A stretch of 64,000 bases of DNA from an uncultured Rickettsiales bacterium (lineage in GTDB: Bacteria > Myxococcota_A > UBA796 > UBA9615 > CAYRNR01), in contig CAZBPN010000004.1 of assembly GCA_964493735.1 (NCBI GenBank), positions 4,109-68,108 of the forward strand. The letters run 5' to 3'. Positions 10,547 to 64,000 of this stretch are shown here, piece after piece (position 1 is the first letter of the stretch; each line of letters begins with the position of its first letter). The translations under genes were made by a program, and so were the position numbers. Under the pieces are notes generated by a model. The model ran no database searches and had not been told where the DNA came from. It saw nothing but the letters and a program-made list of their open reading frames with translations.

Positions 10547-10565
10547 GTCAACTCCTGATTTAATC

Positions 10566-10710: not shown

Positions 10711-10759
10711 AGGTTTCGACGCGGGGTGCAGACGATCTGCCCCTGGAGCGGGAGGAACG

Positions 10760-12004
10760 ATGAGGAACGTCGCCCGAACCTTCCTGAGCATCCTGGTGAT
10801 GGGGGCCCTGGTGGGCTGCTTTGCCGAGGCCCCGAAGGATCCGCCGGGGCCCCAGGCCGAGGACGACATGTCCGCCCGCAACGGCGGCCCGTCGGTGCGT
10901 CTGATGCACCCCCAGAACGGGCAGGCCGTGCCCAACCCGGTCTCCTTCGCCATCGACACCACCGCCGGGATCCACAAGGTCGTCTTGGACGCGGACGGCT
11001 GGGTCCTCGACGAGTGGGATCCCCACCACTACACGATCGTGGATTACACCTTCCAGGGCGTGAACACGCCGCGGGTGATCACCCTCACCGGGTTCGACGC
11101 CCACGGCACCCCGAAGGACACCGACAGCGTCGTTATCACGGTCTACAACGATGACGGCGGTGGCGGCTCCACCCCCGGGGGCACCGACGTCCGCATCACC
11201 GCCCCGGGCGACGGGGCCGACGTCCACAACCCCGTCACCTTCGACACCAGCTCCAACGGGATCCACGCGCTCAAGCTGTTCGCGGACGGCTACGACATCA
11301 GCGACTTCTGGAAGCCCGAGTGGGGCAGCACCCATACCTACGAGTTCTCCCAGGGCGGCACCCGGGAGATCGAGCTGGTCGGCTACGACAGCGGCTGGAA
11401 CCGGGTCGCCAAGGACGTCATCACCATCCACGTCGACGGGGCCAGCAACCCGGGCAACGACAACAACAACAACAACGGCAACAACAACAACGGGGGCAAC
11501 AACAACGGCTCGCTCAACGTCCCGTACTACTACCAGTACAGCAACGCGTACGAGCCGAGCGCCACCTGCGGGCTGACGTCGGCGGCCATGCTGCTGAGCT
11601 ACATGAAGGGCACCAGCGTCGACCCCGACACCCTCTACCTGAACTACGGCAAGGCCCAGGGGCAGTCGCCGGGTTCCCTCGCGCAGCTGTACAGCTGGGA
11701 GGGCCTGTACGCGGACTCCACCTACGGCGGCACCCGTTCCATGATCAAGAACCAGCTGGACGCTGGCCGGCCCGTGCTGGTGCACACCTTCCTCACCGGC
11801 GCGGGCCACATCATCTGCATCGTCGGCTACGACGGTAGCGGCTGGATCGTCAACGATCCGGCCGGCGACTGGTACCAGTGCTACGGCTGCGGCGCCTACG
11901 GCGACCACGTGCACTATCCCTACGGCGGCGGCGCCGACGATGCCTTCAGCCACGACGGGGACATCTGGATGTCCTCGGCGGACACGTCCTCGTTCGGCTT
12001 CTAG
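10760..12004 (+). CDS. secreted lipoprotein with two tandem N-terminal repeat modules of about 75 aa, a poly-Asn linker and a C39-like (papain-fold) cysteine peptidase domain
   Basis: The ATG at 10760 has a GGAGG ribosome-binding site and starts a signal peptide with lipobox LVGC. The two repeat modules read PNPVSFAIDTTAGIHKVVLDADGWVLDEW and HNPVTFDTSSNGIHALKLFADGYDISDFW. They are followed by NNNNNGNNNNGGNNNG. The catalytic Cys (SATCGLTSAAML) and His (GHIICIVGYD) are present. Confidence 0.7.
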   Translation: MRNVARTFLSILVMGALVGCFAEAPKDPPGPQAEDDMSARNGGPSVRLMHPQNGQAVPNPVSFAIDTTAGIHKVVLDADGWVLDEWDPHHYTIVDYTFQGVNTPRVITLTGFDAHGTPKDTDSVVITVYNDDGGGGSTPGGTDVRITAPGDGADVHNPVTFDTSSNGIHALKLFADGYDISDFWKPEWGSTHTYEFSQGGTREIELVGYDSGWNRVAKDVITIHVDGASNPGNDNNNNNGNNNNGGNNNGSLNVPYYYQYSNAYEPSATCGLTSAAMLLSYMKGTSVDPDTLYLNYGKAQGQSPGSLAQLYSWEGLYADSTYGGTRSMIKNQLDAGRPVLVHTFLTGAGHIICIVGYDGSGWIVNDPAGDWYQCYGCGAYGDHVHYPYGGGADDAFSHDGDIWMSSADTSSFGF

Positions 12005-48604: not shown

Positions 48605-49261
48605 TTGGTAACCGGAGGGCACGTGGCGGACCAAGAGACCCGGAACGAGCGCGACTGGGAGGGCACACCGACCCAGCTGCGAATCCTCGACCGCGCCACC
48701 GCGCTGTTCCAGCAGTTCGGCTTCAAGCGGGTGACGATGGACGACATCGCCCACCAGCTGGGCATGAGCAAGAAGACCCTCTACCAGCACATCCCGGGCA
48801 AGGACGCGCTGGTGGAGGCCTTCGTCGAGAACCTGATGACCCAGGCGCTGGGCGCCGCCCGCGCGATCTTCGAGGGCCCGGGGGACGTGGTCTCGATCAC
48901 GCGCACGCTGATCCCCCTGATCCACGCACGCCTGCAGACCGTCACCCCGGTGATGATGGCCGACCTGGAGCGCCACTGGCCCCACCTGTGGGACCGCATC
49001 AACGAGCGGCGCATGTCGGTGCTTCAGCTGTACCTGGGCCACCTGGTGGAGGCCCGCGAGCGCGGGCTGGTGAGGGAAGAGGTCAACCCCAAGGTGATGG
49101 TGCGGGTGATCGAGACGGTCGTGCGGGAGGTCGCCAATCCCCACACGATCCTCGAGCTCGAGGTCCCGGTGGGCGAGGTGCTGCAGACCTTCATGACGAT
49201 CATGCTGCGCGGGGCGTTGACCGACGACGCCCAGCGCCGGTTCGAGGAGGGCGACCGATGA
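48605..49261 (+). CDS. TetR-family transcriptional regulator
   Basis: The helix-turn-helix is FKRVTMDDIAHQLGMSKKTLYQHI. The start is either the TTG at 48605 or the GTG at 48623. Confidence 0.8.
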   Translation: MVTGGHVADQETRNERDWEGTPTQLRILDRATALFQQFGFKRVTMDDIAHQLGMSKKTLYQHIPGKDALVEAFVENLMTQALGAARAIFEGPGDVVSITRTLIPLIHARLQTVTPVMMADLERHWPHLWDRINERRMSVLQLYLGHLVEARERGLVREEVNPKVMVRVIETVVREVANPHTILELEVPVGEVLQTFMTIMLRGALTDDAQRRFEEGDR

Positions 49262-50238
49262 ATCATCACGACATGGTGCTGGGGGGAATCCTGTCCCTGC
49301 TGCTGATCGTGGCGGGCTGCCCCTCGAACGACAACGGCCGGCTGGACGTGAGCGGCAGCATCGAGGCCGACGAGGTCCGCGTCTCCTCGACGGTGGGCGG
49401 CCACGTCGCCGACGTGATGGGCGCCGAGGGGCAGACGGTGGCCGAGGGCGAGGTGCTGATGCGCTTCGACACCGTGGACATCGAACTCCAGGCCGACCAG
49501 GCCCGGGCCGCGGTGCGGCTGGCGGAGGCCCAGCTGGCGCTGGCCCACGCCGGGGCCCGGCCCGAGGACATCGCCGCGGCCCGCGAGCTGGTCAAGCAGG
49601 CCGAGGCCGCCGAGACGATGGCCACCGCCGATCTGGAGCGGGTCGGCGAGCTGGAGAACGAGGGGGCGGTCACCGGCAAGCAGGCCGACGACGCCCGCAC
49701 CGGCCACGAGGTGGCGGTCTCCCGCACGCGGGCGGCCAGGCAGCAGTACAACAAGGCGCTGCGGGGGGCCCGCCCCGAGGAGCTGGAGATGGCCGAGGCG
49801 GGGGTGGCCCAGGCCGAGGCCCTGCTGGCGCTGGCCGAGAAGAAGCTGGCCGACTGCGAGGTGACCGCGCCCCTGTCCGGGACGGTCATCCACCGGCTGG
49901 TGGAGCCCGGCGAGGTCAGCCGGCCCGGGGCGACCCTGTTCGTGATCCAGGACCTGAGCACGGTGCGGCTGACGGTCTTCGTGCCGGAGACCGAGATCGG
50001 CGCCGTCCGGCTCGGGGATCCGGTGCAGGTGTTCATCGACTCCCACCCGGGCCAGCCCTTCCCGGGCAAGGTCTCCCGCATCCGGGATCACGCGGAGTTC
50101 ACCCCCAAGAACGTCCAGACCAAGGACGAGCGGGTGAAGCTGGTGTTCGGGGTGGAGGTGGAGCTGCCCAACCCGGACGGATACCTCAAGCCGGGCTTGC
50201 CCGCGGACGCCTTCATCGGCTCGCAGGCAGGGGGCTGA
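49258..50238 (+). CDS. HlyD-family membrane-fusion (periplasmic adaptor) lipoprotein
   Basis: The ATG overlaps the TetR stop codon as ATGA. Lipobox VAGC, coiled-coil regions and a beta-barrel domain are present. Confidence 0.8.
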   Translation: MNHHDMVLGGILSLLLIVAGCPSNDNGRLDVSGSIEADEVRVSSTVGGHVADVMGAEGQTVAEGEVLMRFDTVDIELQADQARAAVRLAEAQLALAHAGARPEDIAAARELVKQAEAAETMATADLERVGELENEGAVTGKQADDARTGHEVAVSRTRAARQQYNKALRGARPEELEMAEAGVAQAEALLALAEKKLADCEVTAPLSGTVIHRLVEPGEVSRPGATLFVIQDLSTVRLTVFVPETEIGAVRLGDPVQVFIDSHPGQPFPGKVSRIRDHAEFTPKNVQTKDERVKLVFGVEVELPNPDGYLKPGLPADAFIGSQAGG

Positions 50239-50248
50239 GGAGGCGACC

Positions 50249-51217
50249 GTGAGCACCCCCGTGGTCGACTTGCAGGGTCTGGTCCACCGCTACCGGGACG
50301 ACCTGCCCCCCGCCCTGGATGGGATCGACCTGCAGGTCGCCCCCGGGGAAGCGTTCGGGCTGGTGGGGCCCGACGGCGCCGGCAAGACGACGTTGATGCG
50401 GCTGCTCTGCGGTCTGCTGGCGCCGTCCGATGGCGAGCTGCGGGTGTTCGGCGAGACGCTGCCGGCGGGCATCGAGCGGATCAAGCCCCGGATCGGGTAC
50501 GTGTCCCAGCGGTTCTCCCTGTACGGCGACCTGACGATCCAGGAGAACCTGGACTTCTTCGCCGACATCCACGGGGTCCGCGGCAAGGTGGCCCGGGAGC
50601 GCAAGGAGGCGTTGCTGGCCTTCACCCGGCTGACTCCCTTCCGCCGCCGGCTGGCCGACCGGCTCTCCGGGGGCATGCGTCAGAAGCTGTCGCTGATCTG
50701 CACCCTGGTCCACGAGCCGGAGCTGCTGCTGCTGGACGAGCCGACCACGGGCGTCGATCCCATCACCCGGCGCGATTTCTGGTCGATCCTGTCCACCCTG
50801 CTGGAGCAGGGATTGACCATCGTGATGAGCACCCCCTACCTGGACGAGGCCGAGCGCTGTGGCCGGGTGGCGCTGGTGGACCGGGGGCAGGTCCTCGCCT
50901 GTGGGACCCCCGATCAGCTGCGGCGAGGATCGACCCAGCAGGTCGTCGAGGTGGTCTGCAGCCCGGTCCGCGCCGCCGCCGAGGGGCTGGCAGGCGCGCC
51001 GGGGGTGGCCGACGTGCACTCCTTCGGCGACCGCCTTCACGTCCTGCTGGCCCCAGACGCCCCGGCCGAGGCTCCGGCCGATGCGCTGGCCCAGCGACTG
51101 CGCGGACAGGGGATCGAGGTGCGCGCGGCGCGGCCGGTGGTCGCCGGGCTGGAGGACGTGTTCATCCAGCTGGTCCAGCGGGGTCGGGACGACGCGGCAG
51201 CGGGGGAGGCGCCATGA
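50249..51217 (+). CDS. ABC transporter ATP-binding protein
   Basis: A GTG start with a GAGGAGG ribosome-binding site. Walker A is GPDGAGKTT, the signature motif is LSGGMRQK, and Walker B is LLLLDEP. Confidence 0.85.
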   Translation: MSTPVVDLQGLVHRYRDDLPPALDGIDLQVAPGEAFGLVGPDGAGKTTLMRLLCGLLAPSDGELRVFGETLPAGIERIKPRIGYVSQRFSLYGDLTIQENLDFFADIHGVRGKVARERKEALLAFTRLTPFRRRLADRLSGGMRQKLSLICTLVHEPELLLLDEPTTGVDPITRRDFWSILSTLLEQGLTIVMSTPYLDEAERCGRVALVDRGQVLACGTPDQLRRGSTQQVVEVVCSPVRAAAEGLAGAPGVADVHSFGDRLHVLLAPDAPAEAPADALAQRLRGQGIEVRAARPVVAGLEDVFIQLVQRGRDDAAAGEAP

Positions 51218-52146
51218 GCGACGTCACCGTGGCCGCCTGGAACCTGACCCGCCGCTTCGGCGACTTCGTGGCCGTCGACGACGTGACGCTGTCGGTCCAG
51301 GCGGGCGAGATCTACGGGTTCCTGGGTTCGAACGGGGCGGGCAAGTCCACGACGATCCGTATGCTCTGCGGCCTGCTGACGCCCACCTCCGGCCGGGCCG
51401 AGGTGGCGGGCTTCGACGTGGGCCGCAAGCCGGAGCAGGTCAAGCGCCGCATCGGCTACATGTCCCAGAAGTTCTCGCTCTACCTGGACCTGACGGTGGT
51501 CGAGAACCTGCGCTTCTTCGGCGGGGTGTACGGGCTGAAGCCCGGCCCCCTGTCCGAGCGCGTCGACTGGGCGCTGGAGATGGCGGAGCTGCGCGGGAGC
51601 GAGGGCAAGCTGGCCGCCGAGCTCTCCGGCGGCTACCGTCAGCGGCTGGCCCTGGCCTGCTCCCTGCTCCACGAGCCGCCGGTGGTGTTCCTGGACGAGC
51701 CCACCGGCGGGGTCGACCCGGTGGCGAGGCGCCGCTTCTGGGACCAGATCTACGCCCTGTCGGCGGCGGGCAAGACCGTGTTCGTCACCACCCACTTCAT
51801 GGACGAGGCCGAGCACTGCCACCGGATCGCGCTGATGGACGCGGGCAAGGTGGTCGCCGAGGGCAGCCCCGGCGAGCTCAAGCAGGGGCTGGGTGATCTG
51901 CTCCACCTGGAGGTGGCCTGCCAGCCCGCCGCCCGCGCCCTCGAGGTGCTCCGGGCACAGCCCTTCGTCGCCGGAATCTCCATCTTCGGTACCTCGGTAC
52001 ACGTCAGCACCCCCGAGCGGGGCCAGGGGGACGACCTGGTCCGCCGCACGCTGGCCGATGCCGGGATTCACGTGGACCGTATCTCCCCGATCCTTCCGTC
52101 CCTGGAGGACGTGTTCCTCCACGTCCTGGGCAAGGAGGTCGCCTGA
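51214..52146 (+). CDS. ABC transporter ATP-binding protein (second ATPase)
   Basis: Walker A is GSNGAGKST, the signature motif is LSGGYRQR, and Walker B is VVFLDEP. The gene overlaps the upstream gene by 4 nt. Confidence 0.85.
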   Translation: MSDVTVAAWNLTRRFGDFVAVDDVTLSVQAGEIYGFLGSNGAGKSTTIRMLCGLLTPTSGRAEVAGFDVGRKPEQVKRRIGYMSQKFSLYLDLTVVENLRFFGGVYGLKPGPLSERVDWALEMAELRGSEGKLAAELSGGYRQRLALACSLLHEPPVVFLDEPTGGVDPVARRRFWDQIYALSAAGKTVFVTTHFMDEAEHCHRIALMDAGKVVAEGSPGELKQGLGDLLHLEVACQPAARALEVLRAQPFVAGISIFGTSVHVSTPERGQGDDLVRRTLADAGIHVDRISPILPSLEDVFLHVLGKEVA

Positions 52147-53534
52147 TGACACCCCTTCGTTTCTCCCTGCCGCTGCTGGCGCTGATCCTGTGCCTCCCGA
52201 CCGCGGCCACGGCGCGGACTTACACCCTGGCCGGGGCGGTCGGCGAGGCCCTGAGGCTGAGCGACGCCGTGGTGGTCGCCGAGGCCAAGACCGAGATGGA
52301 GAAGGCCAAGGCGGACGAGGCTCTGCTGATGTTCTTCCCCCGCGTGGCGCTGACCGGCGGCTGGGCCCACCTGGACTCGGTGCCCTACGTGGAGCAGACG
52401 GTGGACTTCGCCGAGTGGCTCCCCGAGGACCTCACCGAGAATCCCCTGTTCGGCGACATGTTCGCCGACATGGAGCCGGTCACCCTGCAGCTCGAGTTCG
52501 GTCGCCAGGACATGTTCCAGTTCCAGCTCCAGGCCGAGCAGATCCTGTTCGGCGGCACGGGGCTGCACCGCCAGCGGGCGATGGCCATGGCCCAGCTGCG
52601 GTCGGCCCGCGAGGAGGAGCGGACCACCGAGCACGAGGTGGTCCACCAGGCCGAGGAGATGTTCTGGAAGCTGGCCCTGGCCCGCCAGGCGCTGGAGGTC
52701 ACCCAGGAGGCCATCGAGACCGCCAACACCCACGTCGAGCTGCTCGACGCGTTCGTGGAGGTGGGGCTCGCCTCGGACGCCGACCTGATGGCGGCGCGGG
52801 TCCAGCTGGCCTCCCTGCGGCTCAATGCACTGCAGGCGCGACAGGGAGTCGACCTGGCCGAGGCGGCGTTCCGGATGATCGTCCACGTGCCCGACGGGGA
52901 GTCCATCGAGCTGGACCTGGAGGGAGGCCAGCTGCCGCTGGGGGTCGACGTGGAGGCCCAGGCGCTCACCGAGATCGCCCGCGATTCCCGGCCCGAGATG
53001 AAGGTCCTCGGCGAGCAGATGACCTCGGTCCGCCACGCGGCCGGCGCGTCCTGGGCCAGCTGGCTGCCGGCCCTGGCCCTGCAGGGCAACGTCTACCTGA
53101 AGAACCCGGACCGGGCCAACGAGCCGTCCTTCTACTGGTCCGCGGACATCACCCTGGGCCTCCAGTGGCACCTGTGGGACCGGGGCCAGGCCCTGAGCCG
53201 CAACCGCCAGGCCAAGGCCGGCATGCGGCAGGTCGAGGCCTATCGCCGCCAGCTCCGCGACGGCATCAAGCTCGAGATCGACGTGGCCATGGCCGCCTAC
53301 CGGGAGGCGGACGAGCAGCGCACGGTGGCCGCGGAGGCGGTCGAACTGGCCCAGGAGAGCCTGCGGCTGGCCAAGCTGAATTTCGGCGAGGGTGTCGCCC
53401 GCAACGTGGACGTGCTCGAGGCCCAGACCGCCCTCTCCAAGGCCCGCCTCGACGCCCTCGGCGCGGAGACCAGCTACCGCATCGCCGTCGCCGGGCTGCG
53501 CAGGGCCTCCGGCCTGGACGTGGAAGGGATCTAG
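52146..53534 (+). CDS. TolC-family outer-membrane efflux protein
   Basis: A signal peptide is followed by two repeated alpha/beta halves typical of OEP/TolC. The TGATG junction overlaps the upstream stop codon. Confidence 0.8.
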   Translation: MTPLRFSLPLLALILCLPTAATARTYTLAGAVGEALRLSDAVVVAEAKTEMEKAKADEALLMFFPRVALTGGWAHLDSVPYVEQTVDFAEWLPEDLTENPLFGDMFADMEPVTLQLEFGRQDMFQFQLQAEQILFGGTGLHRQRAMAMAQLRSAREEERTTEHEVVHQAEEMFWKLALARQALEVTQEAIETANTHVELLDAFVEVGLASDADLMAARVQLASLRLNALQARQGVDLAEAAFRMIVHVPDGESIELDLEGGQLPLGVDVEAQALTEIARDSRPEMKVLGEQMTSVRHAAGASWASWLPALALQGNVYLKNPDRANEPSFYWSADITLGLQWHLWDRGQALSRNRQAKAGMRQVEAYRRQLRDGIKLEIDVAMAAYREADEQRTVAAEAVELAQESLRLAKLNFGEGVARNVDVLEAQTALSKARLDALGAETSYRIAVAGLRRASGLDVEGI

Positions 53535-53543
53535 GAGGCTCCG

Positions 53544-54677
53544 ATGCACCCCGTCCGCCTGCTCGCCATCGCGCGCAAGGAGTTCCGGCAGCTGCTGCGG
53601 GACTGGCGGACGCTGTTCATCCTGGTGGCGCTGCCGGCGCTGCTGCTGCTGATCTTCGGCTACGCCCTGAGCTTCGACGTGCGCAACGTGCCGCTGGCGG
53701 TGCTGGACCGGGACCAGACGCCCCAGAGCCGCGAGCTCGTCCGGGCGATGCTGGGCTCCGAGTCCTTCGCCGGCGTCGGCGTCCTGCGCACCGAGGACGA
53801 GGCCAGCGCGTTCCTGAACGGCGGCCGTGCCGACGCGGTCCTGGTGATCCCCCGGGGCTACGGGCGGGCGGTGCTGTCCGGCGAGCGGGCGGTGGTCCAG
53901 GCGCTGGTGGACGGCTCCAACTCCCAGCAGGCGGCCACCACCCTGGGGTACCTCAACGCCCACTTCACCACCCATGCGGTGGACGTGGTGCAGACCGAGG
54001 CCGAGCGCATCGGCTTCCGCATCCCCGATCCGCCGATCCACGCCATCGCCCGCATCTGGTACAACCCGGAGCTGCGCTCCTCCATGTTCCTGGTGCCGGG
54101 GCTGATGGGCTTCGTGCTGATGATCTCGGCCACCATCTCCACCGCCCTGGGGGTGGTCAAGGAGCGGGAGCGCAACACCATCGAGCAGCTGCTGGTCTCG
54201 CCGATCCGGGCGCCGGAGCTGATCCTCGGCAAGACGATCCCCTACCTGCTGGTGTCGCTGATCGCCACCGTCCTGCTGGTGGCGACCGGCTGGATCCTGT
54301 TCGACGTGGCGGTCAAGGGCAGCCTCTGGCTGCTGGGGCTCTCCTGCCTGCTGTTCTGCCTGTGCGCCCTGGGCCAGGGGCTGATGATCTCGTCGGCCAC
54401 CGACAGCCAGCAGGTGGCCTTCTTCCTGGCGGTGATGACCACGGTCCTGCCGACCTTCCTGCTGTCCGGGTTCGTCTTCCCCCTCGACAGCACACCCGTC
54501 GCCGTCCAGGTGATCAGCCACGCGGTGCCGGGCCGCTACTTCCTGGAGGTGGCCCGGGCGGTGATCCTGCGGGGAGCGGACTTCCACGCGATCTGGAAGC
54601 CCCTGGTCTCCCTGTCGGTGTTCTCCTTCGTGATCCTGGCGCTGGCGTCGGTCCGCACCTCGAGGATCCACCTGTGA
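53544..54677 (+). CDS. ABC-2 type transporter permease
   Basis: An AGGAGG ribosome-binding site, an N-terminal TM helix, a large periplasmic loop and a six-TM ABC-2 membrane domain. Confidence 0.8.
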   Translation: MHPVRLLAIARKEFRQLLRDWRTLFILVALPALLLLIFGYALSFDVRNVPLAVLDRDQTPQSRELVRAMLGSESFAGVGVLRTEDEASAFLNGGRADAVLVIPRGYGRAVLSGERAVVQALVDGSNSQQAATTLGYLNAHFTTHAVDVVQTEAERIGFRIPDPPIHAIARIWYNPELRSSMFLVPGLMGFVLMISATISTALGVVKERERNTIEQLLVSPIRAPELILGKTIPYLLVSLIATVLLVATGWILFDVAVKGSLWLLGLSCLLFCLCALGQGLMISSATDSQQVAFFLAVMTTVLPTFLLSGFVFPLDSTPVAVQVISHAVPGRYFLEVARAVILRGADFHAIWKPLVSLSVFSFVILALASVRTSRIHL

Positions 54678-54690
54678 GGGGGACGCGCCG

Positions 54691-55809
54691 ATGCTGAAGC
54701 ACCTGATCCGCAAGGAGTTCCTGCAGATCCGCCGGGACCGGCGGATGGCGCCGATCATCTTCGTGGCGCCCATGCTCCAGCTGCTGATCTTCGGCTACGC
54801 GGCGACCCTGGACGTGGTCGAGATCCCCCTGGTGGTCTGCGACCAGGACCGCAGCTCCACCAGCCGCGAGCTGGTCCGGCGGATGGAGGGCGCCGACACC
54901 TTCTCGCCGATCCTGTACGTGGAGCAGCCGGATCAGATCGACCTGATGCTGACCCGTGGCGACGCGGGCGTCGCCCTGGTGATCCCGACGGGGCTCGGGG
55001 AGCGGGTGCTGTCCGGGGGGACCGCGGACGTCCAGGTGCTGGTGGACGGGGCCGACAGCGTCACCGCCTCCCAGGGGCTGAGCGCGGCGGTCCTGATCAG
55101 CGGCGAGTACGCCCAGGACGTGCTCCGTGAGCGGCTGGCGGCCGTGGGCATGGAGATGCCCGAGCTGCCCCGGCTCGAGCCCCGGGTCTGGTACAACCCG
55201 GAGCTCAAGTCCCGCAACTACATGGTCCCGGCCCTGCTGGGGCTGATCCTGATGCTGATGACCATGATGCTGACCTCGATGGCGCTGGTGCGCGAGAAGG
55301 AGGCGGGCACCATGGAGCAGCTGGCGGTCACGCCGGTCCGCCCGGTCCAGCTGATCCTGGGCAAGCTGATGCCCTTCGTGATGATCGGCTTCGTCCAGGT
55401 CACGGTGATCACGGCGGTGGCCGTGCTGTGGTTCCAGGTGCCCTTCCGCGGCAACCTGCTGGCGCTCTACCTGATGGTGCTGCCCTTCCTGCTCAACACC
55501 CTGGGCATCGGCCTGATGGTCTCGACCCTGTCGTCCACCCAGCAGCAGGCGATGATGACCGCGATGTTCTTCTTCATGATGCCGATGATCTACTTCTCCG
55601 GCTTCGTGTTCCCCATCGAGTCGATGCCCGCCTGGGTCCAGCCGGTGTGCTACCTGGTCCCCCTCAAGTACTTCCTGGAGATCATCCGCGGCATCTTCCT
55701 GCGCGGGGTCGGCATCGAGGTGCTGTGGAAGGACGTGCTCGCCCTGACCGTGCTCGGCGTCGGCTGGCTGAGCTTCTCGGTGTTCCGCTTCCGCAAGACC
55801 GTGGACTGA
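54691..55809 (+). CDS. ABC-2 type transporter permease (paralogue)
   Basis: Same architecture as the preceding gene, a YbhS/YbhR-like pair. Confidence 0.8.
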   Translation: MLKHLIRKEFLQIRRDRRMAPIIFVAPMLQLLIFGYAATLDVVEIPLVVCDQDRSSTSRELVRRMEGADTFSPILYVEQPDQIDLMLTRGDAGVALVIPTGLGERVLSGGTADVQVLVDGADSVTASQGLSAAVLISGEYAQDVLRERLAAVGMEMPELPRLEPRVWYNPELKSRNYMVPALLGLILMLMTMMLTSMALVREKEAGTMEQLAVTPVRPVQLILGKLMPFVMIGFVQVTVITAVAVLWFQVPFRGNLLALYLMVLPFLLNTLGIGLMVSTLSSTQQQAMMTAMFFFMMPMIYFSGFVFPIESMPAWVQPVCYLVPLKYFLEIIRGIFLRGVGIEVLWKDVLALTVLGVGWLSFSVFRFRKTVD

Positions 55810-55818
55810 GCGACCCCC

Positions 55819-57768
55819 TCAGCGCACCACCACCCGCACCGGCGATCCGGCCGAGCCGTGGGCGGCGGTCCCGCAGCCGCTGGCCTCCACGTAGTAGAGG
55901 ATCGCCGGGCGGTGCTCGGCGGTGACCGGCAGGGACCAGGAGAACGAGGGCCCGTCCCCCCCCAGCGCCGCGGTCCGCCAGGCGCCCGACCCCTCCACGG
56001 TCCAGTGGACGGCCACGTCGCAGCCGGTCCTGCCGGTGTCGACGCGGGTGGTCAGGGTGGTGTTGCGCAGGGTGCGGCGGGAGCCCTCGACGGCGAGGGT
56101 GAGGGGGGCGTCGACCTCGGCGAGGACGAAGGCGTCGGCGTCTGTCTCGGTCTCGGTCTCGTCCTCGTCCTCGGCCTCGGTCTCGTCCTCGGTCTCGTCC
56201 TCGGTCTCGGTCTCGGACTCGGACTCGGTCTCGGACTCGGTCTCGGACTCGGTCCCGTCCTCGGCGGAGCTCCCGGCCCCGCGCTCACCTCCGAGCTCGG
56301 GTGGCACGGGCAGCTTGCTGCCCGTGGGGGGAACGGGAACAGCCTCCTCCTCGTCCTCGATCTCGATCTCCGTCAGCGCATCGTCGCCCACCACCTCGTC
56401 GCCCCCACCGGTCGACGCCGGCGAGACGGTCCCGGTCGCGGGGGGTCCCGCCGAGTCCCGGCTGAGCAGGCCCCAGCCCGCCACCGACGCGATCCCGACG
56501 ACGACCACCCCGAGGAAGAGCAGCAGCAACGGGATCGCCAGCCAGAGCCAGATCGCCCGCTTCTTGCGCGGCTCCTCCTCCACGGGCGTGGGCGGTTCCT
56601 CGGGGGGCGCGACGACCGGCGGATCGTCCTTGACCGTGTCGTCGATGGGCTCGTCGTCGCGCTCGGTCGCCTCGCCGGCGGGAGCCTCGATCCGGTCGGT
56701 GGGATCGTCCCAGTCCGGGTGGTGACGGGCGCCGGCGTAGGGCCGTTGCTCGGTCTTGTCGCCCCGGGGTTCCCCCTCGGCGCCGTGGAGGACCGAGTAG
56801 TCCCCGCTGCGATCCGACGGCAGCTCCTCCAGGCTCCCCTCGTCCAGCTCCTCGGCCAGCCGCTCCTGCCAGCGGGCCACCAGCGCCGGCATCTGTTGCT
56901 CCAGCGGGTACACGGAGCGCAGCCCCCTCAGCTCGCGGGCCACCTCCGCGGCGCTCTCCGGGCGGTCCCCGGGCTGGGGCTGGAGCAGGCGCCGCAGCAG
57001 GGGCGTGAAGGCGTCGGCCGTCCCCGGCAGGGCCAGCAGCAGCTCCTCGGGATCCGGCGCCACCTCGGTGATCGGCTGGCCCCGGCGGTAGGCCATCTTG
57101 GCCGGCACGATCGAGGTCAATCCCTGCAGCAGCATGACCCCCAGGGAGAACAGGTCGCTGGCCGGTGACACCTCGCCGGCGACCGCCTGCTCGGGGGACA
57201 TGTAGCCGGGGGTGCCGACGATCGTCTCCTTGGCGGTGATTCGCTCCTTGGCGCGGGCGCTGACCACGCCGAAGTCGGTGATCTTGACCCGCCCGGAGCG
57301 GTGGACCAGCACGTTGGAGGGCTTCAGATCCCGGTGGACGAGCTCCAGGTGCTTGCCCTCCAGGTCATGCAGGTCGTGGATGTGCTCCAGCCCGCGACAG
57401 ATCTGGTGGCCCACCTCGGCCACGAGCCCCGGGCTCATGACCTCCTCGTGCTCCATCATGTGGAAGTACAGGTCGCCCAGGTCGATGCCGTCCACGTACT
57501 CGGTGATCAGGAAGTACTCGTCCTTGACCTTGAGCAGGTCGATGGTGCCCACGACGTTGTCGTGGTTCATCAGCCCGCCGATCTGGGCCTCGCGGATCAG
57601 GAGCTTGACGACCGCCGGATCCCGGGTCGCCGAGCGGTGCAGCCGCTTCATCGCCACCTGGCGGACGAAGGGCCCCTCGCCCTCCATGCGGGCCAGGTAG
57701 ACGGTGGAGAACGCGCCGCTGCCCAGGGGCCGGACGATGGTGTAGCGCCCGATCCGTACCTCGTCCAT
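55819..57768 (-). CDS. Hanks-type Ser/Thr protein kinase with a single TM helix and an extracellular (SE/TE/DE)n acidic repeat region
   Basis: Kinase motifs are GSGAFSTVY...AMK, HRDLKPSNVL, DFG and GTPGYMSPE. The TM helix is AIWLWLAIPLLLLFLGVVVVGIA. The repeat region reads TESETESETESESETETEDETEDETEAEDEDETETETD. Confidence 0.85.
   Translation of the reverse strand: MDEVRIGRYTIVRPLGSGAFSTVYLARMEGEGPFVRQVAMKRLHRSATRDPAVVKLLIREAQIGGLMNHDNVVGTIDLLKVKDEYFLITEYVDGIDLGDLYFHMMEHEEVMSPGLVAEVGHQICRGLEHIHDLHDLEGKHLELVHRDLKPSNVLVHRSGRVKITDFGVVSARAKERITAKETIVGTPGYMSPEQAVAGEVSPASDLFSLGVMLLQGLTSIVPAKMAYRRGQPITEVAPDPEELLLALPGTADAFTPLLRRLLQPQPGDRPESAAEVARELRGLRSVYPLEQQMPALVARWQERLAEELDEGSLEELPSDRSGDYSVLHGAEGEPRGDKTEQRPYAGARHHPDWDDPTDRIEAPAGEATERDDEPIDDTVKDDPPVVAPPEEPPTPVEEEPRKKRAIWLWLAIPLLLLFLGVVVVGIASVAGWGLLSRDSAGPPATGTVSPASTGGGDEVVGDDALTEIEIEDEEEAVPVPPTGSKLPVPPELGGERGAGSSAEDGTESETESETESESETETEDETEDETEAEDEDETETETDADAFVLAEVDAPLTLAVEGSRRTLRNTTLTTRVDTGRTGCDVAVHWTVEGSGAWRTAALGGDGPSFSWSLPVTAEHRPAILYYVEASGCGTAAHGSAGSPVRVVVR
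56143..56262. repeat. imperfect tandem hexamer array of about 19 units (ctcggt / ctcgtc / ctcgga) encoding the (T/S/D)E repeat of the kinase
   Basis: Read directly from lines 56101-56280. Confidence 0.75.
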
Positions 57769-57774
57769 GGTGCT

Positions 57775-58980
57775 TCAGTAGTCCCCGCCGCAGCCGCCGG
57801 GGACCTCGGCCGGGGCGCCGTTCTCGGCGATCACGCCCTCGACGTACCAGCACATCCGCAGCAACTCCTCGTCGCTCATCTCGTCGCCGTCCTCGACCCG
57901 CTCGGACCCCCCGGCGTCATCGATGGGGCCGACGAAGGGCAGGTGGACGTTGTCCGGCTCCGAGAGCTGGGCGAAGGTCGACTCGACCTGCATGACCACC
58001 GAGGTGGGGACGTCCTCGTGGATGTCGGCCAGGTAGACCGTGCTGGTCTCGCGGTCGATCTGGACCTGGTCCCAGACGGTCGCGTAGGGGTCCCAGCTGC
58101 CCTCCATCATCTGCTGGACGAGCCGGGCGTAGAGCGGTCCCCAGTTCCAGTAGGGCGCGGTCAGGCAGGTGTCCGGGGCGAAGTCGCAGCTGTCCTCGTT
58201 GTCGTAGCCGATCGAGTAGATGTCGAAGGGGTAGGTCGCCGAGTTGGCCAGCGCGTCCACCGTCTCCAGGGGGATGGTGGTGTCGGTCTTGCTGACGATC
58301 ACGTCCGCACCGGCGGCGATCAGCGCCTCGGTGACCAGCGGCTCCTGCTCGATGTCGAACCAGTTGTGGATCCACTCCACGTGGACCACCACGTCCGGGT
58401 TGACCGAGCGGGCCCCCAGGGTCATCGCGTTGAGGTGGCGGACGGTCTCGGGGATCACCACCGGCCCCACCACGCCGATGCGGTCGCTGCCGGTCTGCTC
58501 GGTCACGTGCCCCGCCACGATCCCGGCCAGGTACCAGACCTGGTACATGCGGCCGAAGTAGGAGCCCAGGTTGGGGGACGAGACGAAGCCCGAGCAGTTG
58601 AGGAAGCGGGCCTCGGGGTGGTTGGCGGCGGCGGTCTGGGTGGCGGACAGGAAGTCGAAGCTGGTGGTGACCAGCACGTTGTCCCCGCCGGCGATGAACT
58701 CCTCCATCACGTCCACCGCGTCCGCGGCGATCACCGACGGCTGGTACTGGGTGGTCACCCCGTCCAGCTCGCTCTCCAGGTACTCACGGCCCACGTCGTG
58801 GGCCTTGGTCCAGCCGTGGTCGCCCACGGGGCCGACGTACAGGAAGCCGACCCGGGCCTCGTCCATCTCCCCGGGCCAGGACCCCATCCAGCAGGAGGAG
58901 CAGAGAACGGCGAGCCCCACGCTGGCCGCGGTCCGCAGCAGCAGGCCCGTCAACCGTCCCCGTCGTCGCCTCGTGCCCAC
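57775..58980 (-). CDS. BMP-family (Med/PnrA-like) ABC-transporter substrate-binding lipoprotein
   Basis: Lipobox LCSSC. RVGFLYVGPVGDHGWTKAHDVGREYLE is the hallmark of BMP/PnrA proteins. The gene ends 6 nt upstream of the kinase start. Confidence 0.8.
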   Translation of the reverse strand: MGTRRRRGRLTGLLLRTAASVGLAVLCSSCWMGSWPGEMDEARVGFLYVGPVGDHGWTKAHDVGREYLESELDGVTTQYQPSVIAADAVDVMEEFIAGGDNVLVTTSFDFLSATQTAAANHPEARFLNCSGFVSSPNLGSYFGRMYQVWYLAGIVAGHVTEQTGSDRIGVVGPVVIPETVRHLNAMTLGARSVNPDVVVHVEWIHNWFDIEQEPLVTEALIAAGADVIVSKTDTTIPLETVDALANSATYPFDIYSIGYDNEDSCDFAPDTCLTAPYWNWGPLYARLVQQMMEGSWDPYATVWDQVQIDRETSTVYLADIHEDVPTSVVMQVESTFAQLSEPDNVHLPFVGPIDDAGGSERVEDGDEMSDEELLRMCWYVEGVIAENGAPAEVPGGCGGDY

Positions 58981-58990
58981 GTCCCTCTCC

Positions 58991-59761
58991 TCAGAACCGC
59001 CAGGTCGCCGCCAGCCCGGCCCGTCCCGGCCCCGGCGTGATCACCGGCGCCGTCAGCCCGGTCGAGCGGGCCGGATTCCGCCGACCGGCGGTGGCCAGGT
59101 CCGCGATCAGGCCCGCCAGGGCCACCCCGCCGCTGGCGGCGGCTGCGATGAACGTCACGTTGTTCAGGGGCCTGCGGGCGTCGTAGAGTTCCCGGTCCCC
59201 TTGCTCGATCCACTGGCGGCTCTGGACGAAGGTGATCGTCGCCGTCGCGCCGAACCCGGCCGCCAGTCCGCCGCCGATGCCCGCGACCACCAGTCCCGGG
59301 GGGGCGTTGCCCCTGCGATTGGGGGGTGCGCGCTCGACCCGGGTCGAGCCGATCGGCGAGGTGCCCGGATCATCGTCGGGGTCGACCTCGGCCGGAGCGC
59401 TCCGCCGTACCTCCCCGAGCAGCTCCTCCAGCTCCTGGCGGATGGGCTCGTCCGACGGCTCCATGCAGCCGACGAAGTCGGTGTAGGCCTCGGTGGCGCG
59501 GTCCAGCTCCCCCAGCTCCGCGTAGGTGCGGGCCAGGTACTCGTCGAGGATGCAGCACTCCGGATCCTCGGTCTTGGCGCGCTTCAGCAGGGAGAGGGCG
59601 AGGGCGGGATCCCCGTCGTCCAGGGCCTCGGTGGCCGCAAACAGGTAGTTCTCTGTCTTGAGGCTGACCTCGCCGTCGGCCGCGGGCAGGGCACACGCCA
59701 CCATGGCGATGGCCGCCAATGAACCGACGAGCGCGGTGGGTAACGGACCCCACGACCGCAT
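58991..59761 (-). CDS. TPR-like protein with a signal peptide and C-terminal hydrophobic segments
   Basis: The N-terminal signal is MVAC. TPR-like helices (LARTYAELGELDRATEAY) are followed by two Gly/Ala-rich TM-like segments. Confidence 0.5.
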   Translation of the reverse strand: MRSWGPLPTALVGSLAAIAMVACALPAADGEVSLKTENYLFAATEALDDGDPALALSLLKRAKTEDPECCILDEYLARTYAELGELDRATEAYTDFVGCMEPSDEPIRQELEELLGEVRRSAPAEVDPDDDPGTSPIGSTRVERAPPNRRGNAPPGLVVAGIGGGLAAGFGATATITFVQSRQWIEQGDRELYDARRPLNNVTFIAAAASGGVALAGLIADLATAGRRNPARSTGLTAPVITPGPGRAGLAATWRF

Positions 59762-60473: not shown

Positions 60474-62042
60474 CTAGTCCATCACCAGGACGATGAACTG
60501 GACCCGGCGGTTCTCGGCGTGGGCGGCCTCGGTGTTGGCGGGGTCGATCAGCTGCTGTTCACCGTATCCGGCGGCGACCAGGCGGTCGGCCCCGATCCCC
60601 TTGCCGATCAGGTAGGCGCGGACGGCGTTGGCCCGGTCCTGGGAGAGCTCCAGGTTGTAGCCGTCGTCGCCGCGGGTGTCGGTGTGGCCCTGGATCTCCA
60701 CCTTGCGGATGTTGGGGTACGCGACCAGGATCTCCTGCACCGCGTCGAGGACCTTGTGGGACTCGGGCTTGATGGTGGCCTTGGCCAGGTCGAAGTAGAC
60801 CTTCTCGAAGATCCGGATCTCGGCCACGGTGTCCTCCACCACCAGCTCCACCAGCGCCGTGTCGGGGCAGCCGTCGTCGTCCTCGACCCCGTTGACCGTC
60901 TCCGGCTGGGTAGGGCAGTCGTCCTCGTCGTCGAGGAACCCGTCCCCGTCCCGGTCGCCGGCGGCGTCGGGGCAGCCGTCCTTGTCGTCGGTCCCGTTGA
61001 GGGTCTCGGGCCGGTCCGGGCACTCGTCCTCGGTGTCCAGGACCCCGTCGCCGTCGTTGTCCGGGTCCGGGCAGCCGTCGTCGTCCTCCCAGCCGTCGAT
61101 GTCCTCGGGCTCGCCCGGGCACTCGTCGGCCTTGTCCGACACCCCGTCCCCGTCCCGATCCGTCGGCGGCATGATGGTGTAGCCCAGGCCGAACACGATC
61201 CGGCCCTCGGGGGACGGCACCCCCTGACCGATGGAGGTCCCCGCCGCGATCCGGAAGGCCACGCCGGGCACCGGGTAGATGGTCGCGCCGGCGAGCCACT
61301 CGGTCGGGTCGTTGCGGGGCACGCCCCGCACGTCGCCGAAGATCTCCCCGCTGAAGGCGAGGGCGTCGATGGGCGTCACGCTGACCGCGGCGCGCCACAG
61401 GAAGGCGTTGCCCGCGATCAGGTCCTCGACCTCCTCGGGCCGCGTGATCCGGTACCCCAGGTTGGCGCCCATCCGCAGCATGCCGATGTGACCCGACAGC
61501 ATCAGCATCGGCGCGAACGACAGGAAGGAGCGGCCCGCGTAGAGCGCCTCGTTGCCGGACGGCAGGCTCAGGGGCAGCACGAAGCCGACGCCGAACTTCT
61601 TCTCCTCGGCGTCCATGAACCGCACCTTGGGCACGATCCGGATGTCGCCGACCGCGGTGCCGACGAAGGCGTCGGTCCAGCCATCGAAGCCGTCGCCGCT
61701 GATGGCCAGGTGGATCGGGATGTCCACCGCCAGGTCGGCGGGGCCGAAGCCGATGGCCGCCTGCAGGTCCATGGTCGCCAGGTCGCCCACCACCCGCTGG
61801 AAGCTGCCGTCGTCGTACCGGTAGAGGACCGGATCGCGGGCGTAGGTGAACCACATCGCGAACGCGGGCTTGCCCAGCTCGAGGGTGCGCGCGTAGTGGG
61901 TGGTGAACCAGCCGTGGTAGTCCGTGTGGGGCTGGAAGTTCTGGGCGTCCATCGGCGGGGGATCCGCCGCCGCCGGCCGGGCCATCGCCGCGACCATCGC
62001 CAGCACGATCCACGCTCCCTGGAGTCTCGTCAGCATCCGCAT
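60474..62042 (-). CDS. OmpA-family outer-membrane protein with an N-terminal beta-barrel, thrombospondin type-3 calcium-binding repeats and a C-terminal OmpA domain
   Basis: A signal peptide is followed by DxDxDGxxDxxDxCP TSP3 repeats. The OmpA C-terminal domain is NIRKVEIQGHTDTRGDDGYNLELSQDRANAV...NRRVQF. Confidence 0.8.
   Translation of the reverse strand: MRMLTRLQGAWIVLAMVAAMARPAAADPPPMDAQNFQPHTDYHGWFTTHYARTLELGKPAFAMWFTYARDPVLYRYDDGSFQRVVGDLATMDLQAAIGFGPADLAVDIPIHLAISGDGFDGWTDAFVGTAVGDIRIVPKVRFMDAEEKKFGVGFVLPLSLPSGNEALYAGRSFLSFAPMLMLSGHIGMLRMGANLGYRITRPEEVEDLIAGNAFLWRAAVSVTPIDALAFSGEIFGDVRGVPRNDPTEWLAGATIYPVPGVAFRIAAGTSIGQGVPSPEGRIVFGLGYTIMPPTDRDGDGVSDKADECPGEPEDIDGWEDDDGCPDPDNDGDGVLDTEDECPDRPETLNGTDDKDGCPDAAGDRDGDGFLDDEDDCPTQPETVNGVEDDDGCPDTALVELVVEDTVAEIRIFEKVYFDLAKATIKPESHKVLDAVQEILVAYPNIRKVEIQGHTDTRGDDGYNLELSQDRANAVRAYLIGKGIGADRLVAAGYGEQQLIDPANTEAAHAENRRVQFIVLVMD

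Positions 62043-62083: not shown

Positions 62084-64000
<1,917 letters not shown>

Follow-up and report, generated by a model that had tools for sequence, protein, structure and literature searches.

A conserved trio of BMP-family lipoprotein, TPR/membrane protein and receptor Ser/Thr kinase genes in Myxococcota: a candidate SBP-dependent sensing module

Introduction

Receptors that depend on a substrate-binding protein (SBP) are well established, and GlnH-GlnX-PknG is described as the sole characterised case in which an SBP stimulates a Ser/Thr kinase (PMC8050422, PMC9769921). In this actinobacterial system three genes form a unit that encodes an SBP lipoprotein, a membrane protein and a Hanks-type Ser/Thr kinase (PMC6069109, PMC9769921, PMC8050422); the SBP does not serve transport and instead informs the kinase of a nutrient outside the cell. 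In LuxP-LuxQ, TorT-TorS, ChvE-VirA and MBP-Tar, a ligand-loaded periplasmic binding protein docks on a membrane receptor, and the genes for SBPs acting on kinases are found beside signalling genes rather than transporter genes (PMC8050422). The BMP family is absent from that review of SBP-dependent receptors. Within the BMP family, the lipoprotein Med of Bacillus subtilis (PDB 2hqb), which has no role in a transporter, is reported to be required for signalling by the membrane histidine kinase KinD (Banse et al. 2011). The locus described here has GlnH-GlnX-PknG as its closest known system, and is assembled from different parts.

Results

The three-gene unit

Three tightly packed minus-strand ORFs lie in the window (the whole 64-kb stretch of DNA that was analysed), with exactly the boundaries given in a preliminary description of this DNA:

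58991..59761, minus strand: gene 1, secreted TPR/membrane protein, 256 aa (ORF list)
57775..58980, minus strand: gene 2, BMP-family substrate-binding lipoprotein, 401 aa (Pfam Bmp PF02608)
55819..57768, minus strand: gene 3, single-pass receptor Ser/Thr kinase, 649 aa (Pkinase E=2.4e-41)

The gaps within the unit are 10 and 6 nt, the GC3 of the three ORFs is 0.91-0.98, and GGAGG stands 9 nt upstream of the ATG of gene 1. The window contains one kinase gene, one BMP gene and one TPR/membrane gene, all adjacent. The initial statement that no ABC permease or ATPase genes accompany the SBP has to be narrowed: an ABC ATPase and permease set does lie directly downstream, convergent and 9 nt from the kinase stop, but it is of TetR/HlyD/OEP/ABC-2 efflux type, unrelated to a BMP-type importer, and permease probes for BPD_transp_2 have no match anywhere in the window.

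The BMP lipoprotein

The identification of gene 2 as a BMP-family lipoprotein holds, its match to PF02608 (E=1.2e-37) lying above the cut-off and its predicted lipidation cysteine, Cys30, being nearly invariant in alignment A1, in the context [GSA]-C-W or [GSA]-C. Two regions are referred to below:

58891..58914, minus strand: lipobox region LAVLCSSC (Cys30 conserved in alignment A1)
57778..57855, minus strand: MCWYVEGV motif and C-terminal extension PAEVPGGCGGDY (C377...C397; alignment)

Med (2hqb), for which we know of no ligand, is a detectable homologue of gene 2 (E=7e-9), at low identity. The closest solved relatives, AtzT (6pi5) and a Brucella BMP protein (3s99), both at E~1e-53, bind the purine bases guanine/adenine, not nucleosides (PMC6834077), and the purine nucleosides first suggested as the ligand class give way to bases on that ground. 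Gene 2 shares with both the fold and subfamily, the aromatic sandwich and the Ser/Glu/Asp contacts. The pocket mapped from guanine-bound AtzT and adenine-bound 3s99 consists of W57, S107, E178, W207 and D233, with 3s99 identical at five of five positions. These residues are kept, with few substitutions, in kinase-linked, fused and ABC-linked members, and most of D54, W57, H61, S107, R144, E178, W207 and D233 are kept in the majority of the clade loci and in the fusions. We propose gene 2 as a putative ligand-binding subunit with a purine-base-type pocket. Conservation of the pocket is equally expected of an SBP still feeding a transporter.

AtzT and the Brucella protein are importer components, whereas gene 2 has no importer genes nearby, and it further differs from them in an extra disulfide-type Cys pair, a C-terminal extension and its link or fusion to a kinase. 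The signature of the MCWYVEGV motif and the extension (C377/C397) is present in all loci linked to a Ser/Thr kinase (STK) in which the BMP C-terminus is covered (L007 falls outside this count, its C-terminus lying beyond its matched stretch) and in 4/4 fusions, whereas in ABC-linked relatives the first of the two Cys sites is D, N, M or Q and the second is V, F or an alignment gap. Only the kinase-linked clade and the fusions have the cysteine pair, the extension and, in most members, H182; C377 and C397 may form a disulfide, and the motif together with the extension is a candidate docking surface.

The receptor kinase

Gene 3 comprises the following parts:

56956..57744, minus strand: cytoplasmic Hanks-type kinase domain, residues 9-271 (Pfam and alignment)
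56464..56556, minus strand: transmembrane segment, residues ~405-435 (hydropathy scan)
56098..56466, minus strand: disordered acidic extracellular linker, residues 435-557 (composition)
55822..56097, minus strand: C-terminal extracellular Ig/FN3-like beta-sandwich domain, residues ~558-649

The Pkinase match and the single transmembrane segment, preceded by RKKR on the cytoplasmic side, bear out the original reading of a kinase with one membrane helix, and the catalytic motifs are complete (G16xG18, K41, H145-R-D147, D165-F-G167, P192-E193). The best NCBIfam match is to the PASTA type (PknB/Stk1), at a score of 184 against a cut-off of 450. Gene 3 shares with those kinases a Hanks-type catalytic domain, a single membrane pass and an extracellular sensor part, but it has no PASTA repeats, and sensing would, in the model proposed below, be delegated to a separate protein.

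The ectodomain, at first described as an (SE/TE)n region, does contain that repeat, but the description overlooked a conserved Ig-like domain at the C-terminus; the ectodomain as a whole consists of a low-complexity tether carrying a generic beta-sandwich. In the sandwich, of ~95 residues, two Cys are conserved and the stretch VTAEHRPAxLY is invariant. The linker contains 29 Glu, 13 Asp, 16 Thr and 11 Ser in 123 residues, begins at pLDDT <50 in the ectodomain model, and differs in length and sequence in every kinase orthologue compared (P0122-P0126). According to clade, the kinase ectodomain is Ig-like, PEGA or almost none, PEGA domains taking its place in other clades and occurring on the TPR partner as well; because the ectodomains differ in this way, no one docking surface that all these kinases conserve is identified.

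The TPR/membrane protein

Two regions are distinguished in gene 1:

59399..59662, minus strand: TPR-like helical domain, residues 34-121 (single-sequence AlphaFold model)
59093..59296, minus strand: Gly/Ala-rich hydrophobic segments, residues 156-179 and 203-223 (family alignment)

Pfam TPR matches (TPR_19/TPR_16) fall below the cut-off (E=3e-4). The TPR assignment is nevertheless supported by an HMM built from 11 family members (E=1e-66) and by the single-sequence AlphaFold model, whose five helices (34-48, 52-65, 70-82, 86-99 and 102-121; pLDDT ~90) make up two TPR units and a cap. The hydrophobic part is modelled at pLDDT <50; the family alignment places a conserved loop, GDxExY..R..N, between its two segments, and the protein ends in ..GLAATWRF (58994-59017). 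The membrane topology of these segments is a prediction, and the role of the membrane part in the module is a guess. By the family HMM, almost every Myxococcota locus has a homologue of gene 1 beside its BMP gene; the protein, treated as incidental at the outset, is a conserved third component.

Conservation, fusions and importer genes

The clade set holds 52 loci, of which 36 have 4 kb or more of flanking sequence on each side, and neighbour searches spanned the 64-kb window and +/-10 kb around every other locus. In 31 of the 36 well-flanked Myxococcota loci, both a kinase gene and a TPR/membrane gene lie within 4 kb of the BMP gene, and one further locus is a fusion; co-occurrence of BMP and STK genes in relatives had been named beforehand as a check, and their adjacency is indeed kept across Myxococcota. 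In 32/39 cases the BMP gene and the kinase gene closest to it share a strand. In about 10% of the well-flanked loci (L033, L043, L044 and L065) the kinase is absent, and no other transducer was seen in these four. Several MAGs carry two paralogous modules (L003/L004, L006/L030, L031/L034, L013/L025). The gene set is retained while gene order is shuffled, with TPR-BMP-STK, STK-TPR-BMP, BMP-TPR-STK, STK-BMP-TPR and divergent arrangements all occurring.

Four protein clusters (L067/P0290, P0249, P0276 and P0281) are single Pkinase-TM-Bmp proteins, P0249 being identical across three independent assemblies. Because the BMP parts of the fusions are closest to different unfused branches, fusion arose at least two or three times. 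No TPR/membrane gene was seen near the fusion loci (0/4).

Importer genes accompany the relatives from other phyla. BPD_transp_2 probes match only 14 loci, among relatives from Chloroflexota, Atribacterota and Firmicutes-type genomes, and a tandem ABC ATPase lies directly 3' of the BMP gene in 15 loci from other phyla; neither a BPD_transp_2 permease nor a tandem ATPase was found within 10 kb in ~50 Myxococcota loci. The BMP protein of one Myxococcales contig (L061) has a transporter-type signature, and for that reason purine-type importers may exist in Myxococcota.

Discussion

A proposed sensing module

Comparative evidence, from kept adjacency, the fusions and the want of a nearby importer, supports the original suggestion that the orphan SBP may be the ligand sensor of the kinase. 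We consider it reasonably probable that the trio forms one extracytoplasmic sensing module with the BMP lipoprotein as the ligand-binding subunit of the kinase; most likely this protein senses a purine-like molecule outside the cell on behalf of the kinase.

In such a module, the lipoprotein would have its origin in a purine-type ABC importer, as the substrate-binding subunit, and have become detached from transport, its intact aromatic-sandwich pocket probably binding adenine, guanine or a related planar heterocycle. The kinase, which has no small-molecule-binding domain of its own, would obtain ligand binding from its neighbour. Its exterior is a long disordered acidic tether, partly array-encoded, followed by the small Ig-like domain, which resembles a module for protein docking. 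As a third, membrane-anchored partner, the secreted TPR protein with its two hydrophobic segments would probably bridge or stabilise the contact of liganded SBP and kinase, and this contact would alter the oligomeric or activation state of the kinase and hence its cytoplasmic phosphorylation output. We infer from sequence these contacts, as well as the direction of regulation, the ligand, the substrates and the site of the lipoprotein at the inner or outer membrane.

Alternative readings

The BMP protein might instead be an ordinary or dual-use transport SBP delivering purines to an importer encoded elsewhere, with the kinase sharing its regulation or being informed on the side, as in MBP->Tar and ChvE->VirA. 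Its pocket is fully conserved with ABC-linked relatives, its closest solved homologues are transport SBPs, the importer search covered +/-10 kb per locus and the 64-kb window, and there is the transporter-type protein of L061. We nonetheless think this rather unlikely, given the contrast between Myxococcota and the ATPase-bearing relatives of other phyla, the clade-specific Cys and C-terminal changes, and the paired paralogous modules, which are typical of sensor families; moreover, an SBP fused to a kinase behind a transmembrane helix cannot easily serve a transporter.

A protein-protein envelope complex without small-molecule input, in which the BMP fold is a scaffold and the kinase reports envelope state or the TPR partner, would suit the TPR, Ig-like and PEGA parts, all of them protein-interaction modules, as well as L030, where a degenerate BMP paralogue has as its neighbour a protein that carries the same Ig-like domain but no kinase. 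It is improbable, since the retention of most pocket residues, both in the majority of the clade loci and in the fusions, is hard to explain without ligand binding.

A separate question concerns the repeat within the linker:

56144..56254, minus strand: GAG-NNN hexamer array, 18.5 units (Tandem Repeats Finder)

Read as GAG-NNN, the array codes for TESETESETESESETETEDETEDETEAEDEDETETETDADA, the (SE/TE/DE)n part of the linker, and Tandem Repeats Finder (period 6, 18.5 copies, 82% matches, score 131) agrees with the imperfect array of about 19 units first reported. The accompanying idea of a slippage-prone ectodomain of variable length fares unevenly: length does vary between species, but three independent assemblies of the same population, from different samples, differ by 3-6 SNPs across the operon and by no change in array length, which leaves slippage unsupported. 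An adaptive contingency locus, varying the ectodomain between cells or strains, would accord with the near-identical in-frame units and with linkers that differ greatly in length between orthologues, the closest of which (P0122) lacks the array. We find it quite unlikely in view of the constant array length, of a 6-nt unit that cannot switch frame, and of the Pro/Ala-rich linkers of other clades, which are similar in length without repeats. The pattern fits neutral drift of a disordered spacer.

Finally, that kinase and BMP genes are neighbours by chance is extremely improbable: Myxococcota encode many Ser/Thr kinases, which could inflate such adjacency, but the far-zone control argues against this explanation, kinases being ~7.5-fold enriched near the BMP gene (1.23 per 10 kb, versus 0.16 per 10 kb farther away), as do the conserved trio, the fusions and the single kinase in the window.

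Comparison with known systems

If the sensing-module reading is right, the likeness to GlnH-GlnX-PknG would extend to a TPR element, here on the partner and not on the kinase, and to FHA proteins, which are the output in Actinobacteria; an FHA gene adjoins the module in Sandaracinus. The parts differ throughout. The SBP is of the BMP/PF02608 type (cluster B, purine-type pocket) rather than an amino-acid SBP, the kinase is a single-pass membrane receptor with an ectodomain rather than the soluble PknG, and the place of GlnX, a protein of four TM helices and two 4-helix-bundle domains, is taken by a secreted TPR protein that has two hydrophobic segments; the phylum is another, and there is no homology beyond the kinase fold. 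KinD differs in being a histidine kinase and in having a sensor domain itself, and the Med-KinD pair in having no TPR partner, while LuxQ, TorS, VirA and Tar are histidine kinases or MCPs, as against an output here of Ser/Thr phosphorylation.

The three-gene module

The module consists of three minus-strand reading frames separated by gaps of 10 and 6 nt, an arrangement for which the preliminary description proves exact to the nucleotide:

58991-59761, minus strand: gene 1, TPR/membrane protein (256 aa)
57775-58980, minus strand: gene 2, BMP-family substrate-binding lipoprotein (SBP, 401 aa)
55819-57768, minus strand: gene 3, receptor Ser/Thr kinase (STK, 649 aa)

The GC content at third codon positions is 0.91–0.98 for all three, in a window of 71% GC, and we therefore take them to be real reading frames. 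Gene 2 matches PF02608 (BMP/PnrA-like) at 130 bits (cut-off 24.1, E=1.2e-37) and is a predicted lipoprotein, with a cysteine (Cys30) following the hydrophobic signal sequence that is nearly invariant among 28 relatives. Its signal peptide (58891-58980) opens with a twin-arginine-like stretch, as do those of its sub-branch (proteins P0002, P0005 and P0008; RRRRGRL, RRRIGLL, HRRFGVL); such a start points tentatively to Tat export within the sub-branch, the stretch not being conserved across the wider clade.

Gene 3 matches the Pkinase profile at 142 bits and, judged by its complete set of catalytic motifs (G16xG18, K41, H145-R-D147, D165-F-G167, P192-E193), is a Hanks-type Ser/Thr kinase. The single transmembrane helix ascribed to it is indeed one segment, at residues ~405–435, with RKKR just before it. 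The score against the PASTA receptor kinase family NF033483 (NCBIfam) is 183.9 bits, below the cut-off of 450, and a Pfam search of gene 3 returns no PASTA repeats. For gene 1, the best TPR profile is TPR_19, at 21.4 bits under a cut-off of 25; relatives reach TPR_2 at 29.7 bits (cut-off 27), and residues 34–121 are confidently modeled as five helices forming a helical repeat. Between 55000 and 61000 no Rfam family, such as a purine riboswitch, is matched, and neither a sigma-70-like promoter nor an intrinsic terminator was found for the module.

Two further minus-strand genes of the window encode Asp-rich repeat proteins:

60474-62042, minus strand: OmpA-family protein with similar Asp-rich repeats, adjoining the next
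62084-63856, minus strand: 590-aa protein built of Asp-rich repeats of the bacterial TSP3 (thrombospondin type 3) kind and containing long runs of poly-Asp

The TSP3-repeat protein ends in GGCKC, a hydrophobic stretch and RRRIR, an ending that resembles a MYXO-CTERM sorting tag.

Linkage of lipoprotein, kinase and TPR protein across the Myxococcota

From an alignment of the 28 BMP relatives, 79 loci were fetched from species-representative genomes, in which tblastn located kinases, ABC ATPases and other proteins of the window, the matches then being mapped to open reading frames. At the Myxococcota loci, a single-pass kinase adjoins the BMP gene or sits one gene away. A third gene, between the two or on the far side, encodes a protein with a signal peptide, a short TPR region, sometimes a PEGA domain, and two Gly/Ala-rich hydrophobic segments flanking a conserved loop, the last residue being mostly aromatic. 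Gene 1 of the window shows this same architecture, and an HMM built from 11 such TPR/membrane proteins places one beside the BMP gene in nearly every Myxococcota locus.

The clade comprises 52 loci, 36 of them with at least 4 kb of flank on both sides. In 31 of these 36, the BMP gene has a kinase gene as well as a TPR/membrane gene within 4 kb, so that the co-occurrence of BMP and STK genes in relatives, earlier proposed as a check, is borne out; the others are one fusion, two loci with the TPR gene only and two with neither. Kinases occur at 1.23 per 10 kb near the BMP gene vs 0.16 further away, and in 32 of 39 cases the closest one shares the BMP gene's strand. No alternative transducer was seen at the kinase-less loci L043, L044 and L065. 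The order TPR-BMP-STK is that of the window's own branch; elsewhere one finds STK-TPR-BMP, BMP-TPR-STK, STK-BMP-TPR and divergent layouts, and in the cultured Sandaracinus amylolyticus FHA-STK-BMP-TPR. That the gene set is kept while its order is shuffled argues for functional dependence rather than inherited synteny.

Several features of these loci merit mention in their own right. The FHA gene directly upstream of STK-BMP-TPR recurs in Sandaracinus and two related loci (L083 3564-4085; L014; L029); such neighbors are confined to the Sandaracinus branch, and FHA was dropped as a general fourth component, though the FHA proteins beside these modules may be kinase targets. Of the 11 aligned TPR/membrane proteins, 9 have an aromatic last residue that follows a hydrophobic stretch containing Gly (..GLAATWRF in the window, 58994-59017; ..GLLLGGRF; ..FISLTW); at low confidence, the AlphaFold model suggests a terminal β-hairpin. 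In other branches the kinases carry short conserved extracellular tails, ...R[VI]P[IV]VD or ...NP[WF][DEG] (L014, L017, L022, L024, L026, L028, L029 and L037; L019, L020, L060, L070 and L079), which recall the C-terminal peptides bound by TPR domains. Locus L030 encodes a short membrane protein (~11200-11976, plus strand) that has the C-terminal Ig-like domain of the window's kinase without a kinase domain, beside a degenerate BMP paralogue (10001-11164; F108P, H182Q, T234S); an intact module (L006) is found in this MAG as well. Finally, several TPA MAG records bearing the Myxococcota-type module (L001-L004, L006-L010 and others; 61–71% GC) are labeled "uncultured Rickettsiales" or "Enterobacterales", labels that look wrong.

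Natural kinase-BMP fusions

In locus L067, a single reading frame encodes a kinase domain (residues 76–344), a TM helix (404–424), a Cys-rich module and a BMP domain (481–853). Whereas a metagenome scan for close relatives of this fusion returned only unrelated kinases, the fusions were recovered by a full HMMER search of the BMP profile against 1.84 billion representative sequences, which yielded 11,219 relatives; among the best 150 of these, the Pkinase-TM-Bmp architecture occurs in four 50%-identity clusters (P0249, P0276, P0281 and P0290, the last corresponding to L067). Three independent assemblies encode an identical P0249, which is thus not an assembly error. The BMP parts of the fusions are nearest to different unfused branches (57% identity to L032; ~48% to L058; at most 39% to anything), from which it follows that fusion arose at least two or three times. 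No TPR/membrane gene is found near the fusions at any of the four fusion loci; this fits a role for the TPR protein as an adaptor that is dispensable once the SBP is tethered, four loci being few.

Convergent with the P0249 gene, in all three assemblies, lies a gene for an FHA-FHA-ABC-2 exporter (L087, 8151-10595), which may be a target of the kinase. This exporter resembles Rv1747, found next to PknF. Other BMP-domain fusions, among P0282, P0350 and P0374, join PNP_UDP_1 nucleoside phosphorylase, PG_binding plus FGE-sulfatase, or RCC1 repeats; the PNP_UDP_1-BMP fusion is P0282, a transporter-type relative, and fits with purine chemistry in this BMP subfamily. In many BMP lipoproteins of the clade (e.g., P0047, P0070 and P0099), and also in the L067 fusion (residues 440–477), the region from the membrane anchor to the BMP domain contains one or more Cys-rich modules (C..C.S..C....C...C).

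The ligand pocket

Among solved structures, the window's BMP protein comes nearest to AtzT (6pi5) and to the Brucella lipoprotein 3s99, each matched at E~1e-53; all remaining BMP-family structures, including Med, stand at E>=2.5e-10. The affinity of AtzT is 110 nM for guanine and 2.5 μM for adenine, and 3s99 was deposited with adenine (PMC6834077). The aromatic sandwich and the Ser, Glu and Asn/Asp base contacts of this subgroup are all present in the window's protein.

Pocket contacts of AtzT and the aligned residues of the window's BMP protein and 3s99
AtzT Tyr45: window W57; 3s99 W
AtzT Ser97: window S107; 3s99 S
AtzT Glu165: window E178; 3s99 E
AtzT Trp194: window W207; 3s99 W
AtzT Asn220: window D233; 3s99 D

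All fusions and most of the 79 loci preserve these five residues as well as D54, H61 and R144, which indicates an intact pocket of the purine-base type. On this alignment the protein probably binds a purine-like ligand, and the label "nucleoside-binding" that it had been given is probably wrong, the strong structural matches being to base binders. Three features set the kinase-linked clade apart from its ABC-linked sisters: a second Cys pair (C397, and C377 within the motif MCWYVEG), in most cases His182, and a C-terminal extension, ...PAEVPxGCxGD; these are candidate surfaces for new partners.

Does the binding protein still serve an importer?

A tandem ABC ATPase gene lies directly downstream of the BMP gene in 15 relatives, which come from Chloroflexota, Atribacterota and Firmicutes-type genomes. 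BPD_transp_2 permeases were detected in 14 of these loci, and where the contig reaches, two such permeases follow the ATPase; this is the classical importer operon. Neither the tandem-domain ATPase nor BPD_transp_2 permeases occur in the 64-kb window or within ±10 kb at the Myxococcota loci, and BMP-type permeases (PF02653) are absent throughout the window. The main rival to a dedicated sensor is that the SBP still serves an importer encoded at a distance, possibly in a double role. As the search reached 64 kb here and ±10 kb at the other loci, such an importer could lie beyond it; a purely transport function is, however, at odds with the kinase-BMP fusions, with the clade-specific changes in the kinase-linked BMPs and with several MAGs each having a pair of paralogous modules, and we regard a distal importer as rather unlikely.

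The ABC genes that do adjoin the module belong to an efflux system:

48605-55809, plus strand: tripartite efflux cluster of TetR, HlyD, two ABC ATPases, OEP (TolC-like) and two ABC-2 permeases

This cluster converges on the kinase gene, the two stop codons lying 9 nt apart, and can be ruled out as the SBP's transporter by its ABC-2 permeases and HlyD/OEP partners under a TetR gene. The earlier statement that no ABC genes accompany the BMP gene thus holds for a BMP-type importer and overlooks the efflux genes. Locus L004 keeps the same neighbor, with an ATPase 91% identical.

The kinase ectodomain

The ectodomain was initially characterized by its (SE/TE)n repeat, and TRF confirms the underlying hexamer array, with period 6 and 18.5 copies at 56144-56254; direct reading gives GAG-NNN. 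What that characterization missed is a conserved domain of ~95 residues behind a 123-residue acidic linker. A word-indexed homologue search with the 110-residue C-terminal part of the ectodomain returned one fragment only; relatives of the domain were obtained through tblastn on the fetched loci and from full-length kinase matches. Kinase orthologues are 63–75% identical overall, yet the stretch that links the TM helix to the final ~95 residues shares neither length nor sequence among them. The closest (P0122, 75%) is without the array, and others have Pro/Glu-rich stretches.

A 6-nt repeat unit cannot cause frameshifts. The preliminary description suggested that slippage may vary ectodomain length. 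Across three assemblies of the population (L080, L081 and L082, three samples of one study), the operon is of identical length with 3–6 SNPs, which speaks against that suggestion; the repeat-number differences within a population that mark a simple-sequence contingency locus are absent from these three. The array makes best sense as a stretch of a disordered spacer that drifts freely.

A putative sensing mechanism and its precedents

The reading best supported by these observations has four steps. The lipoprotein would capture a purine-like ligand in the periplasm; once liganded, it would contact the distal Ig-like domain of the kinase, the TPR partner or both; this partner, sitting in the membrane beside the kinase, would bridge or stabilize the contact between lipoprotein and kinase; and cytoplasmic kinase activity would change as the outcome. 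What the sequences show is the set of parts, how they are linked, that importer genes are missing locally, the fusions and a conserved pocket; the contacts, the ligand, the sign of the regulation, the kinase substrates and the membrane in which the lipoprotein is anchored are what we infer here. The core of the original suggestion, that the SBP is the ligand sensor of the kinase, is supported by the linkage, by the fusions and by the lack of local importer genes, even as its details have had to be corrected.

SBP-dependent receptors are well established among histidine kinases, chemoreceptors and GGDEF/EAL proteins, and a 2021 review names only one characterized case of an SBP-stimulated Ser/Thr kinase, GlnH-GlnX-PknG, with no mention of the BMP family (PMC8050422). 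There, too, one operon combines a lipoprotein SBP with a membrane partner and a Ser/Thr kinase, and a TPR element is involved. The GlnH-GlnX-PknG SBP is, however, of the amino-acid type rather than BMP; its membrane partner has four TM helices and two 4-helix-bundle domains, as opposed to TPR and two hydrophobic segments; and its kinase is soluble and TPR-bearing (PMC9769921), while the kinase here has its own TM helix and ectodomain. With SBP family, partner and kinase type all unmatched, the module works like GlnH-GlnX-PknG and is not a member of that system. As to BMP proteins in signaling, the closest precedent is Med of B. subtilis, a BMP-family lipoprotein described as required for KinD (Banse et al. 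2011, as cited), its partner being a histidine kinase. Our search found no paper on BMP proteins (PF02608) with Ser/Thr kinases or on the trio, a mention in a domain catalogue being possible.

In its core, then, the evidence supports an SBP-dependent receptor kinase, a known type of system in a new form and one widespread in the Myxococcota. To the fuller proposition, that receptor Ser/Thr kinases across the Myxococcota employ an ABC binding protein as a ligand-binding subunit of their own, detached from transport and probably recognizing purine bases, with a TPR membrane adaptor and repeated SBP-kinase fusion, we give about an even chance.

Significance

Myxobacteria have very large numbers of Ser/Thr kinases, and to our knowledge almost none has a known signal. 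More generally, the activating signals of bacterial Ser/Thr kinases are referred to as a long-standing open question in one account (PMC6069109). The module is a concrete case that lends itself to testing: its lipoprotein is soluble and has a predicted purine-type pocket, its kinase partner is defined, Sandaracinus amylolyticus provides a cultured host whose genome is complete, and the natural fusions supply a ready-made single-chain receptor. It also documents a path from transport protein to sensor, in which permease genes are lost, a Cys pair and a C-terminal extension gained, and fusion follows. If the proposal is true, this would be the second known pathway from an SBP to a Ser/Thr kinase and the first with a receptor-type kinase; a binding protein would have been turned into a receptor ectodomain, as with the Venus-flytrap modules of eukaryotic receptors, and a myxobacterial kinase family would have its first predicted ligand class.
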